Below are positions 3,256 to 63,556 of a stretch of 64,000 bases of DNA, in pieces. This stretch comes from Escherichia coli (GTDB taxonomy: Bacteria; Pseudomonadota; Gammaproteobacteria; Enterobacterales; Enterobacteriaceae). Under the pieces are notes generated by a model. The model saw only the letters and a list, made by a program, of their open reading frames with translations. It did no database searches and was not told the DNA's origin. Both the position numbers and the translations under genes were made by a program. Location: assembly GCF_003334815.1 (NCBI RefSeq), contig NZ_QOWO01000002.1; one strand, 5' to 3'. Each line of letters starts with the position of its first letter. The first letter of the stretch is position 1.

Positions 3256-3473
3256 GTTAAGCGAGATTTTGTGCCTGGCAGGCCATTGGGTTGAGAATAT
3301 TAGAGTATTGGAAGCGCATTATAAGTTCATTCCAGCTCACAGTGAAATCAGATGTGTACGAAATCACATTTTTTGCCTTTGGCTTGAGTGTAGACCTTAA
3401 GCGAGGAGCAGGATCTTCTTTCAGACTTATGGCATAATGCGCGGTTTGTCATATCTCTTTTCAGGATACGCCT

Positions 3474-6572: not shown

Positions 6573-6681
6573 AACCACCTCTCATTAACTTTCATTCGAA
6601 ACCATTCTGATTTGCATGTGACAATATAAGTTATAAATAAGTTAATGCAAGTTTAATGATTTGATGTGATGTACAGGATGT

Positions 6682-11022: not shown

Positions 11023-11152
11023 AGTTGCCTCTCTATTTCGTTCAAGCATTAAAATACTTTCGAATGAAAGTTAGATTGATGTGCGTCAACTGTTCAGAGA
11101 GTTTTCCCGTGATAGTCTACATTCAGACAAAAAGTACATTTTGAGGATGGTT

Positions 11153-11815
11153 ATGGAACTGTATCTGGATACTTCAGACGTTGTTGCGGTGAAGGCGCTG
11201 TCACGTATTTTTCCGCTGGCGGGTGTGACCACTAACCCAAGCATTATCGCCGCGGGTAAAAAACCGCTGGATGTTGTGCTTCCGCAACTTCATGAAGCGA
11301 TGGGCGGTCAGGGGCGTCTGTTTGCCCAGGTAATGGCTACCACTGCCGAAGGGATGGTTAATGACGCGCTTAAGCTGCGTTCTATTATTGCGGATATCGT
11401 GGTGAAAGTTCCGGTGACCGCCGAGGGGCTGGCAGCTATTAAGATGTTAAAAGCGGAAGGGATTCCGACGCTGGGAACCGCGGTATATGGCGCAGCACAA
11501 GGGCTGCTGTCGGCGCTGGCAGGTGCGGAATATGTTGCGCCTTACGTTAATCGTATTGATGCTCAGGGCGGTAGCGGCATTCAGACTGTGACCGACTTAC
11601 ACCAGTTATTGAAAATGCATGCGCCGCAGGCGAAAGTGCTGGCAGCGAGTTTCAAAACCCCGCGTCAGGCGCTGGACTGCTTACTGGCAGGATGTGAATC
11701 AATTACTCTGCCACTGGATGTGGCACAACAGATGATTAGCTATCCGGCGGTTGATGCCGCTGTGGCGAAGTTTGAGCAGGACTGGCAGGGAGCGTTTGGC
11801 AGAACGTCGATTTAA
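11153..11815 (+). CDS. fsaA: fructose-6-phosphate aldolase 1 (FsaA), 220 aa
   Basis: In-frame ATG at 11153 gives [32 protein letters not shown], the FsaA N-terminus as recalled; the track ORF is a 24-codon upstream extension. Confidence 0.92.
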
Positions 11816-59670: not shown

Positions 59671-61323
59671 TTACGCGCTCAACAGTTGCTTCATGTCTTC
59701 TTCAACAGTGGTGATAGAACGCAGGCCGAATTTCTCGTTCAGCACCGCCAGCAGGTCTGGTGTCAGGAAACCAGGTGCAGTCGGGCCGGTGACGATATTT
59801 TTCACGCCCAGAGAAAGCAGCGTCAGCAGAATGACGATCGCTTTCTGTTCAAACCAGGAGAGCACCAGCGACAGCGGCAGATCGTTGACACCGCAGCCCA
59901 GTTTCTCTGCCAGAGTGACAGCCAGAATAATCGCTGAGTAAGCATCGTTACATTGACCTGCATCTACCAGACGCGGCAGACCTTCGATATCGCCAAACTC
60001 AAGTTTGTTAAAGCGATATTTACCACAGGCGAGGGTCAGGATCAGGCAGTCATCCGGCACGCTGGTGGCGAAATCGGTGAAGTAGTGGCGCTCGCCGCGT
60101 GCGCCGTCACAGCCACCAAGCAGGAAGATATGACGCAGTTTTTCACGGCTCACCAGATCAATCAGCGTATCAGCAGCGCCAAGCAGCGTCTGGCGACCAA
60201 AACCCACGGTGATAAGGTGCGGAATTTCGCTGTACGGGAAGCCTGCCATCTGTTGCGCCTGGGTGATAACCGCAGAGAAATCATCACCGTCCAGATGACG
60301 CACGCCAGGCCAGCCAACAATGCTGCGGGTCCAGATACGATCGTCATAAGCGCCTACGGTTGGGTCGATGATGCAGTTCGAGGTCATCACGATGGGGCCA
60401 GGGAAACGAGCGAACTCCACTTGCTGATTCTGCCAGCCGCTGCCGTAGTTACCGACCAGATGCTTGAATTTACGCAGCTCCGGGTAGCCATGCGCAGGCA
60501 GCATTTCGCCGTGGGTGTAGACATTAACGCCCGTGCCTTCGGTCTGTTCCAGCAGGTTGTAGAGATCTTTGAGATCGTGACCGGAAATCAGAATGCATTT
60601 ACCCGCCGTCGCTTTGACGTTGACCTGGGTTGGCGTCGGGTGACCGTATTTACCGGTTTCGCCTGCATCCAGAATGCTCATCACTTTGAAGTTCATCTGG
60701 CCGATTTCCATTGAACACTCAAGAAGCGCGTTCATATCGGCAGGCCAGGTCCCCAGCCACGCCATGATTTTATGGTACTGGGCATAAATATCGTTGTCGT
60801 ATTGACCGAGAACATGCGCGTGTTCCATATAGGCCGCCGCACCTTTCAGGCCATACAGGCACAGCAGACGCAGGCCGAGAATGTTTTCGCCAATCGCCGC
60901 TTTATCTTTGTTAGGGGTAAATTCTGCTGCCTGACGTTGCAGCTCGCCGAGATCGTCGCTCACCAGTTGCAGGTCAGCCATCGGGTTATCGACGCGCGCG
61001 TTGGCATCTACAGCCAGGCATTGCGCTTTCAGCGCCTCGCGCAGGGCAATCGCTTCACGAGCGTAGCCGACAATACGCGGAGAATCGAAGTTAACGTTGG
61101 TCAGGGTTGAGAAAAAGGCACGTGGCGCGAAGCTGTCAACATCGTGGTTGATGATGCCGTATTCACGCGCTTTTACCGCCCAGGCAGAAAGCCCTTGCAG
61201 CGCCGCGATGAGTAAATCCTGAAGGTCAGAAGTTTCCGCCGTTTTACCACACATCCCCTGCGCGTATGAGCAGCCGTTTCCTGCCGGAGTACGGATAGTT
61301 TGTTCACATTGCACACAAAACAT
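59671..61323 (-). CDS. hcp: hybrid-cluster protein / hydroxylamine reductase Hcp, 550 aa
   Basis: ATG at 61323 gives [27 protein letters not shown] (N-terminal cysteine cluster); track ORF starts at a GTG two codons upstream. Confidence 0.93.
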
Positions 61324-61334
61324 GATCACACCTT

Positions 61335-61435
61335 TTAAAGTTATATTTAATATACATGTTTAAGGTTAAGACGCTTAACGCGGGGATAAAAGGGATTTTT
61401 CATGCAACTTTAAGGGAGATTGATTTAGCGCAATT
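61335..61435 (-). promoter_or_regulatory. hcp promoter region with putative NsrR-type AT-rich palindrome and FNR-like box
   Basis: aacatgtatattaaatataac (about 61340-61362) resembles NsrR operators; ttgatttagcgcaa (61421-61434) resembles an FNR half-matched TTGAT-N4-ATCAA box; assignment from motif resemblance only. Confidence 0.4.
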
Positions 61436-61466
61436 TTGGCGGCAGGGATCTACCGCCAGAGAGGTA

Positions 61467-62366
61467 TTACGCAGAGAAAAAGGCGATGAGGATCGGCACT
61501 AACAGGCTAAGAATAAAACCGTGAACAATTGCCGCCGGGACCATATCCAGCCCGCCAGTACGTTGAAGAACGGGCAGGGTGAAATCCATTGATGTGGCAC
61601 CGCATAAGCCCAGTGCAGTAGAGCGGCTGCGGCGAATCAGCCCAGGGATCAACATAATAGCAATCAGTTCACGGGCCAGATCATTAAAAAACGCCGCGCT
61701 CCCGATTACCGGACCAAAAGATTCGGTCAATAAAATACCGGAAAGAGAATACCAGCCGAAACCGGAGGCCATTGCCAGCGCGGTATTGATGGGGAGATCA
61801 AGAATAAAGGCGTTAATTAAACCACCAATTAATGAACTGACAACCACCACCACGGCGACAATCATTCCCCGGCGATTAAGGACAATCTGCTTTAAGGTCA
61901 TGCCATTATTGCGCAACTGAATACCAACGAGGAAAAGTAGCAAAATTAACGTGTATTCACTGGCTTCGGTCGCGTGTTGTAAGAAAGCCAGTCCACTTAG
62001 ACCAATGGCAAAACCAATCACTACTACGCCGCACAGTTTTAGCGACTCCAGCGCCATCGCAATACGCGACGGGAGTTTTTCTTGCTGATGGTGGTTGCGC
62101 CACGGCAGGCCTCGCTCCAGCCACATCAGGGCGGCAATATTACACAGTAAAATAACGGTAATACTGACGGCAGAATAATGCAGAATCGCCAACAGGTTAC
62201 TGGCGAGGTTATCGAGAAACGCCAGACTGATACCCATAAAAAAGAGAATAAGGTAAACCATCCAGCTTAATAGCTGATTAATAACTTTTAACGCAGCTTG
62301 TTGGCGAAGCGGAATGAGGTAACCCACAATCAGGGGAACCAGAATGATTAACAGCCCAGAAAACAT
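61467..62366 (-). CDS. lysO: lysine exporter LysO (YbjE), 299 aa
   Basis: ATG at 62366 gives MFSGLLIILVPLIVGYLIP; track ORF starts 16 codons upstream. Confidence 0.9.
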   Translation of the reverse strand: MFSGLLIILVPLIVGYLIPLRQQAALKVINQLLSWMVYLILFFMGISLAFLDNLASNLLAILHYSAVSITVILLCNIAALMWLERGLPWRNHHQQEKLPSRIAMALESLKLCGVVVIGFAIGLSGLAFLQHATEASEYTLILLLFLVGIQLRNNGMTLKQIVLNRRGMIVAVVVVVSSLIGGLINAFILDLPINTALAMASGFGWYSLSGILLTESFGPVIGSAAFFNDLARELIAIMLIPGLIRRSRSTALGLCGATSMDFTLPVLQRTGGLDMVPAAIVHGFILSLLVPILIAFFSA

Positions 62367-62821
62367 GAAAACCCAGTCCTTGCAAAGATGAAGTCGAAAT
62401 GCGCGATGACACACTACTGAAAGCGGAAGGACGAGTAAAGTTGCAATTAAAAGGAAATGTTATGCATAAGGAGCAGTAGAGTATTCGTTTTCATTTAAAG
62501 ATATTCTTGCGCTTTAATTACAAACTGCACCGATGTTGGTGGCGTCAAAATCGCCGAGGCGTTCCCTGAAGGCCGGGGCAGCCCACATGGATGTGGGCTG
62601 AGGGCGCGTTTTACAGGGATGTTACCTCGCGCCCGACCCGGTAGCCGTAAGGGATAAGTCGAGGGCACCGCGCAGCGGCGATTTTGTTCGCCAGAGCCCG
62701 GGGGTGCAGGGGGCGGCGGCGATTGGCCGCCCCCTGCGCGCTCCTTGCGCCAGTGGCAATATGTTGCTTAGCTCATGAAAGGAGCGCAACAAGATGATGA
62801 ATCAACATATAACAACATCTT

Positions 62822-62850
62822 AAAAAAAGGCCTGACATTACGCCAGGCCT
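62822..62850 (-). terminator. rho-independent terminator of aqpZ
   Basis: Minus-strand hairpin aggcctg-gcgtaatgt-caggcct followed by ttttttt, directly after the aqpZ stop. Confidence 0.8.
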
Positions 62851-62860
62851 TCTGCGTTAA

Positions 62861-63556
62861 TTAATCACGCTTTTCCAGCAGGGTCCGGTAAATCAGACCA
62901 CCGATAATGCCGCCGACAATTGGCACCACCCAGAAGAACCACAGTTGTTCTAATGCCCAGCCGCCCTGGAAGATAGCAACCGCGGTGCTGCGCGCCGGGT
63001 TAACAGAAGTGTTAGTCACCGGAATACTAATTAAGTGAATCAGGGTTAAGGCCAGACCAATAGCGATCGGCGCAAAACCTGCCGGCGCGAATTTGTCGGT
63101 TGCGCCGTGGATCACCAACAGGAAACCTGCACTCAATACCAGTTCAACTACCAGCGCGGAAAGCATGGAATAACCGCCTGGTGAATGCTCGCCATAACCG
63201 TTAGAAGCAAAACCGCTGGCTGCCGCGTCAAAACCCGTTTTACCACTGGCAATTAAATACAGCAGCGCCGCTGCAACAATACCGCCGACAACCTGGGCAA
63301 TTACGTAGCCAACGACTTCTTTTGCCGGAAAACGTCCGCCAGCCCATAAACCAATAGTGACCGCCGGGTTAAAATGACCACCAGAAATATGACCAACAGC
63401 AAAGGCCATCGTCAGAACGGTCAGACCGAACGCCAACGCCACGCCGGCAAAACCAATGCCTAATTCCGGGAAGCCTGCGGCCAGTACAGCACTACCACAG
63501 CCACCAAAAACAAGCCAGAAAGTACCAAAACATTCAGCTGCTAATTTTCTGAACAT
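62861..63556 (-). CDS. aqpZ: aquaporin Z (AqpZ), 231 aa
   Basis: ATG at 63556 gives [19 protein letters not shown]; both NPA motifs (HFNPAVT and SVNPARS) present. Confidence 0.95.

Follow-up and report, generated by a model that had tools for sequence, protein, structure and literature searches.

The GC-rich lysO–aqpZ intergenic block of Escherichia coli is very probably the known repeat TRIP1a/RRS-lysO, a member of a dispersed family with a conserved hairpin fold

The GC-rich block lying between lysO and aqpZ in the 64,000-nucleotide stretch of Escherichia coli DNA analysed here (hereafter the window) is, with high probability, best explained as a whole by a repeat that has already been described, TRIP1a (Rudd 1999; Li et al. 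2024, Genes 15:236), later renamed and studied as RRS-lysO (Pham et al. 2023 NAR 51:5527; Pham et al. 2024 NAR 52:6392; Kusi-Appauh et al. 2026 bioRxiv; together the RRS papers), and is not a new element. The block was identical to that of E. coli K-12 MG1655, with its core matching MG1655 positions 915025–915246 without a mismatch, and the interval 62500–62800 shared 100% identity with K-12-type strains. Window positions were converted to MG1655 coordinates using an offset of 852491, obtained from the positions of lysO (61467–62366, minus strand) and aqpZ (62861–63556, minus strand). Since RRS-lysO is defined as bases 168–389 upstream of lysO (Kusi-Appauh et al. 2026 bioRxiv) and lysO starts at 62366, this 222-bp 'replication risk sequence' occupies 62534–62755, with its G-rich 'RRS-G4' strand corresponding to the plus strand of the window. 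Both the sequence and the position 168–389 nt upstream of lysO thus agreed with the MG1655 element.

Two near-identical 222-bp GC-rich repeats are known in E. coli K-12, the lysO copy and a copy adjoining dusC. The copy between dusC and yohP, which lies on the opposite K-12 strand, had 94% identity overall and was nearly identical over 220 bp (62536–62755). Taken as the extent of homology to this second copy (TRIP1c; Megablast against dusC–yohP loci, query positions 28–298 of 62500–62800), the full TRIP1a unit spans 62527–62797 on the plus strand, compared with a published length of 266–273 bp (Li et al. 2024). Weak similarity among Escherichia-type copies may reach left to about 62507. TRIP1a was originally placed 31 bp downstream of the aqpZ terminator (Rudd 1999), which we located outside the repeat at 62827–62851 on the minus strand (inverted repeat I15, AAGGCCTG / CAGGCCTT, with a T run after it on that strand). 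The published TRIP1/RRS-lysO and RRS-dusC and the window element are the same object, sharing sequence, position, G tract, the dusC paralogue and a deletion form at putP, and no difference was found within the window.

The features that the earlier note had read from the block held up. GC content was 0.55–0.73 across 62500–62799 (100-nt windows), compared with 0.36–0.46 in the flank towards lysO and 0.42 in the flank towards aqpZ, and the given distance of about 170–400 nt from lysO was correct. All three inverted repeats were recovered. The first (I7) has 10-nt, 100% complementary arms at 62579–62588 and 62591–62600, equivalent to the 9-nt arms and 4-nt loop reported before; the second (I18) has 7-nt arms at 62602–62608 and 62628–62634 with 19 nt between them; and the third (I3) is a perfect 12-nt repeat with an 8-nt loop (62706–62717 / 62726–62737). 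The unit GCGGCGATT does occur twice, both times inside a direct repeat (D1, 62665–62683 and 62706–62724), and no ORF of 60 aa or more was present, since the two longest ones overlapping the block, both encoded by the minus strand, measure 57 and 56 aa. A small ORF of 9 codons at 62779, preceded by AAGGAG (ATGATGAATCAACATATAACAACATCTTAA), was rejected as it was not conserved in the dusC copy. Two helices came in addition to those claimed earlier, a 16-nt outer stem (I1, 62546–62561 / 62671–62686) and a further hairpin (I9, 62738–62746 / 62779–62787).

Together, these helices build a fold with several parts, all given here on the plus strand. The 5' domain (62546–62686; RNAalifold helices 1–5) consists of the outer stem I1, with a tandem A.G/G.A mismatch, round a multiloop holding hairpins 1 and 2. 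Hairpin 1 (62579–62600, I7) presents the loop motif CATGGATG at 62586–62593 and hairpin 2 (62602–62634, I18) the loop motif CAGGGATG at 62614–62621. A third GGA motif, AAGGGAT, is located in the multiloop 3' of hairpin 2 (62649–62655), within AGGGATAAG, which was nearly invariant in our alignment (A4) and lay outside the search pattern used to collect the copies. Further 3', the G-rich tract GGGGGTGCAGGGGGCGGCGG (62700–62719), quoted as the published G-quadruplex-forming sequence in PMC11194060 and read at these coordinates, is overlapped by the perfect 12-bp GC hairpin (62706–62737, I3). Hairpin 3 (62738–62787, I9; GCGCTCCTT / AAGGAGCGC) closes the unit; its loop is variable and measures about 32 nt. 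The structure exceeds chance expectation on both strands. Folded as DNA, the 222-nt core reached −73.4 kcal/mol on the plus strand (z = −6.8) and −71.0 kcal/mol on the minus strand (z = −6.9), with 0/200 shuffles as good, and the 274-nt unit folded as RNA reached −143.3 kcal/mol (plus, z = −5.0) and −131.1 kcal/mol (minus, z = −5.9).

The fold was also conserved across the family. We aligned 57 distinct copies from about nine genera, a set ascertained by a search pattern that fixed the loops of both anchor hairpins. Across these copies, 98.8% of the cells in the 13-helix fold pair, compared with 37–43% when the partners were slid, and compensatory changes occurred in 24/58 pairs versus 2–8 in the slid controls. 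The covariation score was 0.263 (0.02–0.06 slid) and none of 500 shuffles reached the observed values. Compensatory changes across genera indicate selection on structure, though possibly for the element's own propagation. Helices 1–3 of the 5' domain carried compensatory changes (RNAalifold). In helix 6 (hairpin 1), three of the six pairs had changed on both sides, including flips from C-G to G-C, and this stem was fully compensated in a copy from a Thiotrichales MAG (CAATCTTCA/TGAAGATTG). At the closing pair of hairpin 2 (helices 7–8), 31 copies had A-U and 26 had G-C. The loop of this hairpin varied only as CA(G/C/A/T)GGA(T/C)G, exactly the form that the search pattern had required. Helices 10–12 (the 12-bp hairpin) had 7/10 pairs changed on both sides and helix 13 (hairpin 3) 3/7, e.g. 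GCGCTCC/GGAGCGC versus CGTTCAC/GTGAACG. With 56 G.T (G.U) wobbles on the plus strand versus 10 A.C cells, the G-rich plus strand is the folding strand. The hairpin fold is thus kept by selection and it is the G-rich strand that folds. As the outcome that would count against its proposals, the earlier note had named a multi-copy dispersed repeat with no strand-specific conservation; the copy number part of this applies, but the strand part does not, because the wobble pairs favour one strand.

The G-quadruplex followed a different pattern from the hairpins. At the lysO copy, the G4Hunter maximum was +1.84, in the G tract on the plus strand, and the minimum −1.2, so that a G-quadruplex is predicted on one strand only, as described for TRIP1/RRS. 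G4 potential was uneven among the copies, with G4Hunter values of 0.96–1.08 in 8/57 and a canonical G3x4 motif in just one of the 57, and the 12-bp hairpin was retained in copies whose G4Hunter score fell to about 1.0. Natural changes in K. aerogenes include G-to-A in the G run together with the matching C-to-T, a combination that would leave the hairpin without the G4. Judged from these alignments, the 12-bp hairpin may matter at least as much as the G-quadruplex. The available text of the three RRS papers attributes the polymerase block to the G4 and presents computational folding of both strands, with no comparative or mutational test of a hairpin reported there; secondary structure is discussed in these papers and the word 'hairpin' is never used.

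The published experiments show a polymerase block, gap formation, dependence on the element, and ectopic activity. When the G-rich strand is the lagging-strand template it blocks polymerases, leaving a gap of roughly 1.4–2.5 kb that is coated by RecA and SSB (Pham et al. 2023, 2024; Kusi-Appauh et al. 2026). The RecA/SSB peaks mark single-stranded DNA on the lagging strand and are lost upon RRS deletion, ectopic RRS gives rise to new peaks, and in vitro the G4 site stalls Pol I, II and IV (RRS papers). In single-molecule assays, almost all encounters produced a gap when the G strand was the lagging template, compared with about 66% for the C strand (RRS papers). The published peak interval (MG1655 913842–915206) maps to 61351–62715 of the window and ends inside the G tract at 62700–62719. 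The GC skew of the element's plus strand was positive, both over 63.7 kb of the window (+0.031) and at the dusC locus (+0.030), so the window plus strand is the lagging-strand template, as published. The G-rich strand is accordingly the lagging template at both K-12-type loci, in agreement with their MG1655 replichore positions; this fails for the family at large and for the O157-type lysO allele.

Combining these data, a fork unwinding the site would leave the G-rich plus strand, as lagging-strand template, briefly single-stranded. This strand could then snap into the very stable multi-hairpin fold, possibly together with a G-quadruplex over 62700–62719. The lagging-strand polymerase, travelling right to left, would halt at the fold and restart elsewhere, and a gap would remain leftward over lysO, onto which RecA and SSB would load. 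Such a slippage-prone structure fits the finding that, in nature, the hairpin core has been deleted between short direct repeats. The repeats concerned, GTTCCCTGAAGGCCGGGG (62561–62578) and GTTCGCCAGAGCCCGGGG (62686–62703; together D2, 62561–62703, plus strand), bracket the segment that is missing from two deletion forms, TRIP1b and the lysO allele of strain 2A. A pure polymerase block leaves the constancy of the CANGGAYG loop on different stems unexplained. According to the RRS authors, programmed gap formation is known to be triggered by just one other sequence, the pilE G4 of Neisseria gonorrhoeae. This is a short, canonical G4 linked to pilin recombination, which differs in having no multi-hairpin domain and in not being a dispersed repeat. 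As for its purpose, the RRS authors hypothesise that the gap acts as a topological 'relief valve' close to the border of the Ter macrodomain. In vivo, no RecA/SSB peak formed at an inverted RRS, yet this RRS still rescued viability (RRS papers), which suggests that the essential role may not be the gap itself.

A BLAST search for copy number revealed a dispersed family with a median of three places per E. coli genome (range 1 to 8–9, depending on the query; Li et al. 2024 count 0–5 copies), and the candidate of a short repetitive extragenic element other than REP was thereby the right one, in the form of TRIP1a/RRS-lysO. At least 13 places were found in one Klebsiella chromosome and at least seven in Enterobacter sp. 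ENT03, numbers well beyond 'a pair flanking Ter' that count against the main reading. The strongest competitor, although we consider it unlikely, is a MITE- or REP-like extragenic repeat, selfish or neutral, that spreads or persists in tolerated 3' intergenic sites and causes gaps and large inversions as side effects of its extreme foldability. Besides this widely varying copy number, several observations favour such a repeat. At five E. coli loci, the presence of the element differs between strains, and TRIP1 mediates inversions of up to 1.3 Mb (Li et al. 2024). Convergent 3' ends of genes were favoured (26/48 contexts) and divergent promoter regions largely avoided (3/48). Tandem and head-to-head composites and recurrent internal deletions exist, including the putP–efeU copy (TRIP1b, downstream of putP), which lacks the two-hairpin core. 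The element usually adjoins REP in Klebsiella and is allelic with a Box-C-like repeat at alx–sstT. A single locus can hold both orientations with different short flanks.

Also counting against the main reading, about a quarter of E. coli genomes did not have an intact K-12-type allele at lysO; in O157:H7 and in strain EC12 the element was inverted in situ, and the first ~101 nt upstream of lysO were the only part common to alleles of opposite orientation. The orientation of copies showed no bias with respect to local GC skew (positive for 26, negative for 40). As this comparison is noisy over 3–14 kb, more weight was given to copies of opposite orientation that lie within 20–44 kb of each other. 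Likeness to REP/BIME, Box C and other enterobacterial repeats extends to being intergenic, GC-rich, hairpin-forming and multi-copy, with a preference for 3' gene ends. TRIP1 differs in being much longer (about 270 nt), in its complex 13-helix fold and in its few E. coli copies, and has neither similarity to the REP consensus nor an evident RAYT-type tetranucleotide.

Against a purely selfish repeat stands the genetics: deletion of both K-12 copies needs a compensating amplification or a replacement copy (RRS papers). The maintenance of the fold by many compensatory changes across genera, and the conserved positioning around Ter reported by the RRS authors, argue in the same direction. We also found no terminal inverted repeats, target-site duplication or linked transposase, and the phage collection gave no match. 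An empty site or target-site duplication was sought at alx–sstT, where no footprint was readable and K-12 has a different repeat. The 'plasmid' matches that we inspected bear chromosomal housekeeping genes and look like chromosome fragments filed as plasmids, and so do not point to carriage on plasmids.

Less probable still is that the element also, or instead, works as an RNA. Here, a plus-strand transcript related to the TwoAYGGAY motif would bind a CsrA dimer through two or three CANGGAYG hairpin loops, and so titrate CsrA or tag neighbouring transcripts. TRIP1/RRS would then represent a GC-rich enterobacterial branch of TwoAYGGAY, its loops being putative protein sites, most likely for CsrA on the plus-strand transcript, with a trans-acting RNA role beside or underlying the replication phenotype; we rate this as a long shot. 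The covariance-model check suggested in the earlier note was performed as an Rfam search of the window and of 15 related loci at relaxed thresholds, and gave TwoAYGGAY (RF01731) as the only family, always below the gathering score of 43. The match in the window lay at 62545–62684 on the plus strand and scored 30.6 bits. Riboswitches, leaders, Csr/Rsm families and known E. coli sRNAs were all without a match. Other E. coli copies scored 30.9 and 33.1 bits, again on the plus strand only, and Klebsiella copies gave no match even at the relaxed threshold. A divergent relative, found with a TRIP1-derived pattern, came close to the gathering score at 41–42 bits (L040 copies, 41.9 and 41.0; E = 0.003–0.004).

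TwoAYGGAY (Weinberg et al. 2010) resembles the element in having two adjacent hairpins with A-Y/N-G-G-A-Y loops in an enclosing stem with tandem G.A mismatches, and its listed taxa include gamma-proteobacteria and human gut. The loop AUGGAU of hairpin 1 fits the AYGGAY motif. The E. coli loop of hairpin 2, AGGGAU, fails at position 2, having a purine in place of the motif's pyrimidine, and some copies from Klebsiella, Leclercia and Silvania have ACGGAC or AUGGAU in this second loop. TRIP1 further differs by its two additional 3' hairpins and its GC content of about 65%.

TwoAYGGAY has been proposed to bind CsrA (RMfam paper). Both main loops of the element, CATGGATG and CAGGGATG, match the RsmA/RsmF consensus CANGGAYG, the property shared with the CsrA/RsmA-sequestering sRNAs (CsrB, CsrC, RsmV/W/Y/Z), which present GGA in such hairpin loops. 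Hairpin 2 (UUACAGGGAUGU) matches 11 of the 12 positions of the CsrA SELEX consensus, RUACARGGAUGU. Only nine CANGGAYG sites occur in the 64-kb window against 16 expected, and two of these lie 28 nt apart in the element. Such a spacing suits a CsrA dimer. Additional hairpins with CANGGAYG loops on unrelated stems, which the search pattern did not force, numbered 23 within ±700 nt of an anchor (76 kb) versus five in 479 kb further off. The wobble pairs favour the plus strand. A trans-acting product with a promoter of its own would be in keeping with ectopic and inverted copies restoring viability, and in one of two divergent Thiotrichales MAG copies a terminator-like hairpin and T run follow on the motif strand.

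Several results weigh against an RNA. A consensus scan of 62300–62950 detected no sigma-70-like promoter or intrinsic terminator for the element, and the left flanks of several Escherichia-type copies, read manually, held a weakly conserved block with no convincing −35/−10 pair. The MG1655 annotation has no feature at the block, RNA included, and in the supplementary gene table (file 4) of a CsrA CLIP study, which covers genes only, so that peaks between genes would be missing from it, ybjE and dusC are marked 'No' in all four yes/no columns. There was no polarity towards neighbouring genes (tandem contexts split 10 to 9, with convergent ones dominant), such that read-through would give either strand. 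G.T wobbles are equally expected for folded single-stranded DNA, and it was the search pattern that forced the loops of the two anchor hairpins to be invariant. Two exact CANGGAYG hairpin loops plus a third AAGGGAU place the element at the low end for the Csr/Rsm class; CsrB has 18 GGA motifs against these two or three sites, and the element lacks the promoter- or terminator-like sites (consensus scan) and the Rfam match of that class. No RNA product is considered in the available text of the three RRS papers.

The remaining candidate of the earlier note was a structured 5' leader for lysO. Such a leader, or a regulatory element acting on lysO in cis, was not supported and is very improbable: the block is strongly structured and lies upstream of lysO on the side of the lysO-coding strand, but near-identical copies occur downstream of the unrelated dusC and putP, the wobble-indicated folding strand is antisense to lysO, natural alleles are inverted or partly deleted and have no more than about 101 nt upstream of lysO in common, single RRS deletions caused no growth defect or measurable stress (RRS papers), and no Rfam riboswitch or leader family matched. 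The single-copy, fixed-orientation state and conservation with the downstream gene expected of a leader were not found at lysO, for which (as lysO or ybjE) no mapped transcription start was found in the searchable literature.

The lysO–aqpZ block is thus a rediscovery rather than a new finding, of an element that could be spotted from its sequence, whereas its functional recognition had needed a purpose-built genomic assay. What the present analysis adds concerns the family: many more Klebsiella and Enterobacter copies, head-to-head composites, covariation-supported hairpins, G4 potential lost from some copies that keep the hairpin, and constant CANGGAYG loops. A multi-copy repeat of mixed orientation in Klebsiella and Enterobacter complicates the picture of a pair flanking Ter, and the comparative data identify the hairpins, including the 12-bp stem over the 'G4', as the conserved feature. 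Loops equal to the CsrA/RsmA consensus, together with a near-threshold match to an orphan Rfam motif, offer a cheap and testable hypothesis at the RNA level. If true, a trans-acting role of such an RNA could explain why ectopic, even inverted, copies rescue the double deletion.

The GC-rich block between lysO and aqpZ (62527-62760) is RRS-lysO, also known as TRIP1a, an element that has already been described and studied by experiment. TRIP1a was named by Rudd (1999) and surveyed again by Li et al. (2024); in the RRS papers it goes by the name of the 'Replication Risk Sequence' RRS-lysO, and TRIP1c by that of RRS-dusC. In a 2026 preprint, RRS-lysO runs from base 168 to base 389 upstream of lysO, which equates to 62534-62755 in the window and nearly coincides with the interval delimited in the earlier note. 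The published G4 string GGGGGTGCAGGGGGCGGCGG was read on the + strand at 62700-62719. Adding 852491 to a window coordinate gives that of MG1655; the published RecA/SSB peak interval (913842-915206) therefore corresponds to 61351-62715, and its end falls inside the G tract.

According to the RRS papers, RecA and SSB coat ~1.4-2.5 kb of lagging-strand ssDNA adjoining each RRS. These peaks are gone after RRS deletion, new ones appear when an RRS is moved to other sites, and none is seen in vivo with an inverted RRS. In vitro, the G4 site on the G-rich strand (G strand, + in the window) stalls Pol I, II and IV, and removal of both RRS was possible only with a 200-kb amplification or with ectopic/inverted copies. 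In a reconstituted single-molecule system, gaps formed at nearly every encounter with the G strand as lagging template and in ~2/3 of encounters with the C strand in that role. Topological relief near the Ter macrodomain is the authors' own hypothesis for the purpose of RRS.

The block is surrounded by hcp (59671-61329), lysO (61467-62366) and aqpZ (62861-63556), all on the - strand. Its GC content, in 100-nt windows over 62500-62799, was 0.55-0.73, compared to 0.36-0.46 toward lysO and 0.42 toward aqpZ. All three inverted repeats reported in the earlier note were recovered at their positions, as was the duplication of GCGGCGATT, and the longest overlapping ORFs were 57 and 56 aa, in agreement with its statement that no ORF of 60 aa or more exists here. 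It had missed a 16-nt outer stem (62546-62561/62671-62686) and a third hairpin (62738-62746/62779-62787). As DNA, the 222-nt core gave -73.4 kcal/mol (z = -6.8) on the + strand and -71.0 kcal/mol (z = -6.9) on the - strand; as RNA, the 274-nt unit gave -143.3 and -131.1 kcal/mol, respectively. Either strand is thus predicted to fold far more strongly than shuffled controls, and GC profile, repeats and folding together bear out the original observation. The right edge of the repeat (62779-62823) has a 9-codon ORF, ATGATGAATCAACATATAACAACATCTTAA, 9 nt after an SD-like AAGGAG; it is probably not a gene, as the dusC copy shows only ATGAGAGACTGA there.

All 5,426 complete E. coli genomes searched by Megablast with 62500-62800 gave matches, with a median of 3 and a maximum of 8 places per genome. 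The block is therefore a dispersed repeat, and the suggestion of a repetitive extragenic element other than REP was right. The second full E. coli copy lies between dusC and yohP, and the third, downstream of putP (TRIP1b), carries an internal deletion. At least 13 places were found in one Klebsiella pneumoniae chromosome, a count derived from Blast matches in a plasmid collection that are mis-filed chromosome fragments. Scanning one genome per species with a sequence pattern gave 56 loci, in Escherichia, Klebsiella, Enterobacter, Leclercia, Silvania, Pseudescherichia, Pseudocitrobacter, Kluyvera and Raoultella. The pattern fixed CATGGATG, GAGGG, CANGGAYG and CCCRACCC, so the invariance of these columns is built in, and relatives differing there lie outside the reach of the scan. 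A few of the contigs with matches are attributed to unrelated organisms and have the look of contamination. In a Bacillus sp. (L048, a 583-bp contig at coverage 0.7) and in Desulfacinum (L024), Sporobacter (L036) and Proteobacteria (L030) MAGs, copies nearly identical to the E. coli or Klebsiella type sit on short or low-coverage contigs and most likely reflect assembly or binning contamination; on the L048 contig, the left flank is that of lysO and the right flank that of putP. K. pneumoniae strain 176 (L013:2558-3272) carries two full tandem copies 437 bp apart, flanked by a mechanosensitive-channel gene and the pca operon.

Based on crude ORF calls at 48 loci, 26 elements lay between convergent genes, 19 between tandem genes (10 in one orientation, 9 in the other) and 3 between divergent genes. 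They thus sit at 3' ends and show no polarity, which argues against a leader or a fixed-strand 3'-UTR element; the proposed 5' leader for lysO is not supported, given also that natural strains can carry the element inverted or partly deleted at lysO. In Enterobacter, Leclercia, Silvania and Pseudescherichia, many copies are joined head to head with a second, related unit in larger composites. Enterobacter sp. ENT03 (L016-L022) has at least seven such composites of ~640 nt, each comprising an inverted 'type-B' relative, an AT-rich spacer of ~110 nt and an E. coli-like unit, head to head; three of them lie within 20 kb in alternating orientation. In Klebsiella, a REP is usually found just upstream. 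In the alx-sstT spacer, the element and a Box-C-like repeat are alternative alleles, and comparison of the two revealed no readable target-site duplication. K-12 has the Box-C-like repeat CCCTCTCCC...GGGAGAGGG...GGGTGAGGG there (L074:3540-3760) and strain 64A:C has TRIP1d in its place (L014:2898-3334), so the same spacer holds different extragenic repeats in different strains.

In both full K-12 copies the G strand is the lagging-strand template, judged by positive flank GC skew, in agreement with the papers. This rule is not general, as skew across the family was positive for 26 copies and negative for 40. Three ENT03 copies within ~20 kb are oriented -, +, -, and Pseudescherichia vulneris has two of opposite orientation 44 kb apart. 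At lysO itself, the intact K-12-type allele was present in 4032/5426 genomes, the remainder having other forms. In O157:H7 strain 3384 (L071) and EC12 (L073; see also L064) the element is inverted in situ, with different flanks of ~40-60 nt, and the aqpZ terminator hairpin of K-12 is absent; these alleles share with K-12 no more than the first ~101 nt upstream of lysO. Strain 2A (L072) carries a deletion form. Both L072 and TRIP1b (K-12 putP-efeU, L005:1815-2356) lack the two-hairpin core, with junctions at the short direct repeats (G)CCCGGGG / GGCCGGGG. They look like independent deletions, apparently made when replication slipped over the folded domain. The RRS mechanism is not refuted by mixed orientation, since gaps also form in vitro with the C strand, though the idea of a strict orientation requirement is weakened.

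Across 57 distinct aligned copies, RNAalifold predicted 58 pairs in 13 helices. Standard pairs filled 98.8% of cells, compared to 37-43% with partners slid by 1-3 columns; 24 pairs had changed on both sides (2-8 when slid), the covariation score was 0.263 (0.02-0.06 when slid), and 0/500 shuffles matched the observed pairing values. Compensatory changes were present in every major helix, including the 12-bp stem over the G tract, with variants such as GCAGGGGGCGG/CCGCCCCCTGC, CCAGGGTGGTGG/CCACCACCCTGG, CTAAGGGGG/CCCCCTTAG and GGGGGAGGAGG/CCTCCCCC. G4Hunter scored 1.84 in E. coli and 0.96-1.08 in 8/57 copies that still kept the stem, and the canonical G3x4 motif occurred in 1/57. In this alignment, the hairpin is more conserved than G4 potential. 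The + strand had 56 G.T cells versus 10 A.C cells, therefore the G-rich strand is the one selected to fold; this bias fits a lagging-template ssDNA fold and a + strand RNA equally.

That RRS-lysO has an RNA role as well, its CANGGAYG loops being read by CsrA in the manner proposed for TwoAYGGAY (RF01731), is improbable, and we regard it as a lead. The only Rfam signal was a sub-threshold TwoAYGGAY match of the 5' domain, on the + strand only (30.6-33.1 bits in E. coli copies versus a gathering score of 43), and Klebsiella copies gave no match to this model. Divergent copies on a contig filed as a Thiotrichales MAG, also picked up by the pattern scan, scored 41.9 and 41.0 bits (E = 0.0025 and 0.004, 63-kb search). 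CsrA binding of TwoAYGGAY was already proposed by RMfam, and the element's hairpin loops, CATGGATG and CAGGGATG, match the RsmA/RsmF consensus CANGGAYG. This motif occurs 9 times in the 64-kb window (16 expected), two of them 28 nt apart in the element. Hairpins not forced by the search pattern, on quite different stems, also bear such loops, with 23 within +-700 nt of the anchor versus 5 in the remaining 479 kb; the loop appears to be read by something. However, a consensus scan found no promoter or terminator in or around the E. coli element, the MG1655 annotation has no RNA there, the gene-level table of a CsrA CLIP study, which covers genes only, offered no support, and the element lacks polarity relative to flanking transcription. 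A stable ncRNA, also suggested in the earlier note, is a candidate of low probability.

The Thiotrichales-labelled copies (L040:10476-10700, +, and 11070-11290, -; 41-42 bits) are inverted ~370 nt apart, within 1.2 kb of non-coding sequence that separates a methyltransferase-like from a HAD-like gene, the first being followed by a terminator-like AAAAGGGGTGCCCTTTT and a T run. Elsewhere, L025 (~3300-3400) and L035 (~6590-6680) contain, within the element, a ~75-nt insert with an extra hairpin, GCCCCA(G/A)GGATGGGGC, hairpin 1 is duplicated in L033, and in L015 GGCCCATGGATGGGCC is found on the 3' side. CANGGAYG hairpin modules are both gained and lost in this family. The Pseudomonas aeruginosa RsmV, an sRNA sequestering RsmA/RsmF, likewise has aqpZ as a neighbour, its gene lying between mucE and aqpZ; the shared neighbour is probably a coincidence.

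As the element was already known, the discovery value of the block is low. Modest value resides in the conservation of hairpin over G4, in the multi-copy, mixed-orientation picture of the family, and in the CANGGAYG/TwoAYGGAY link.
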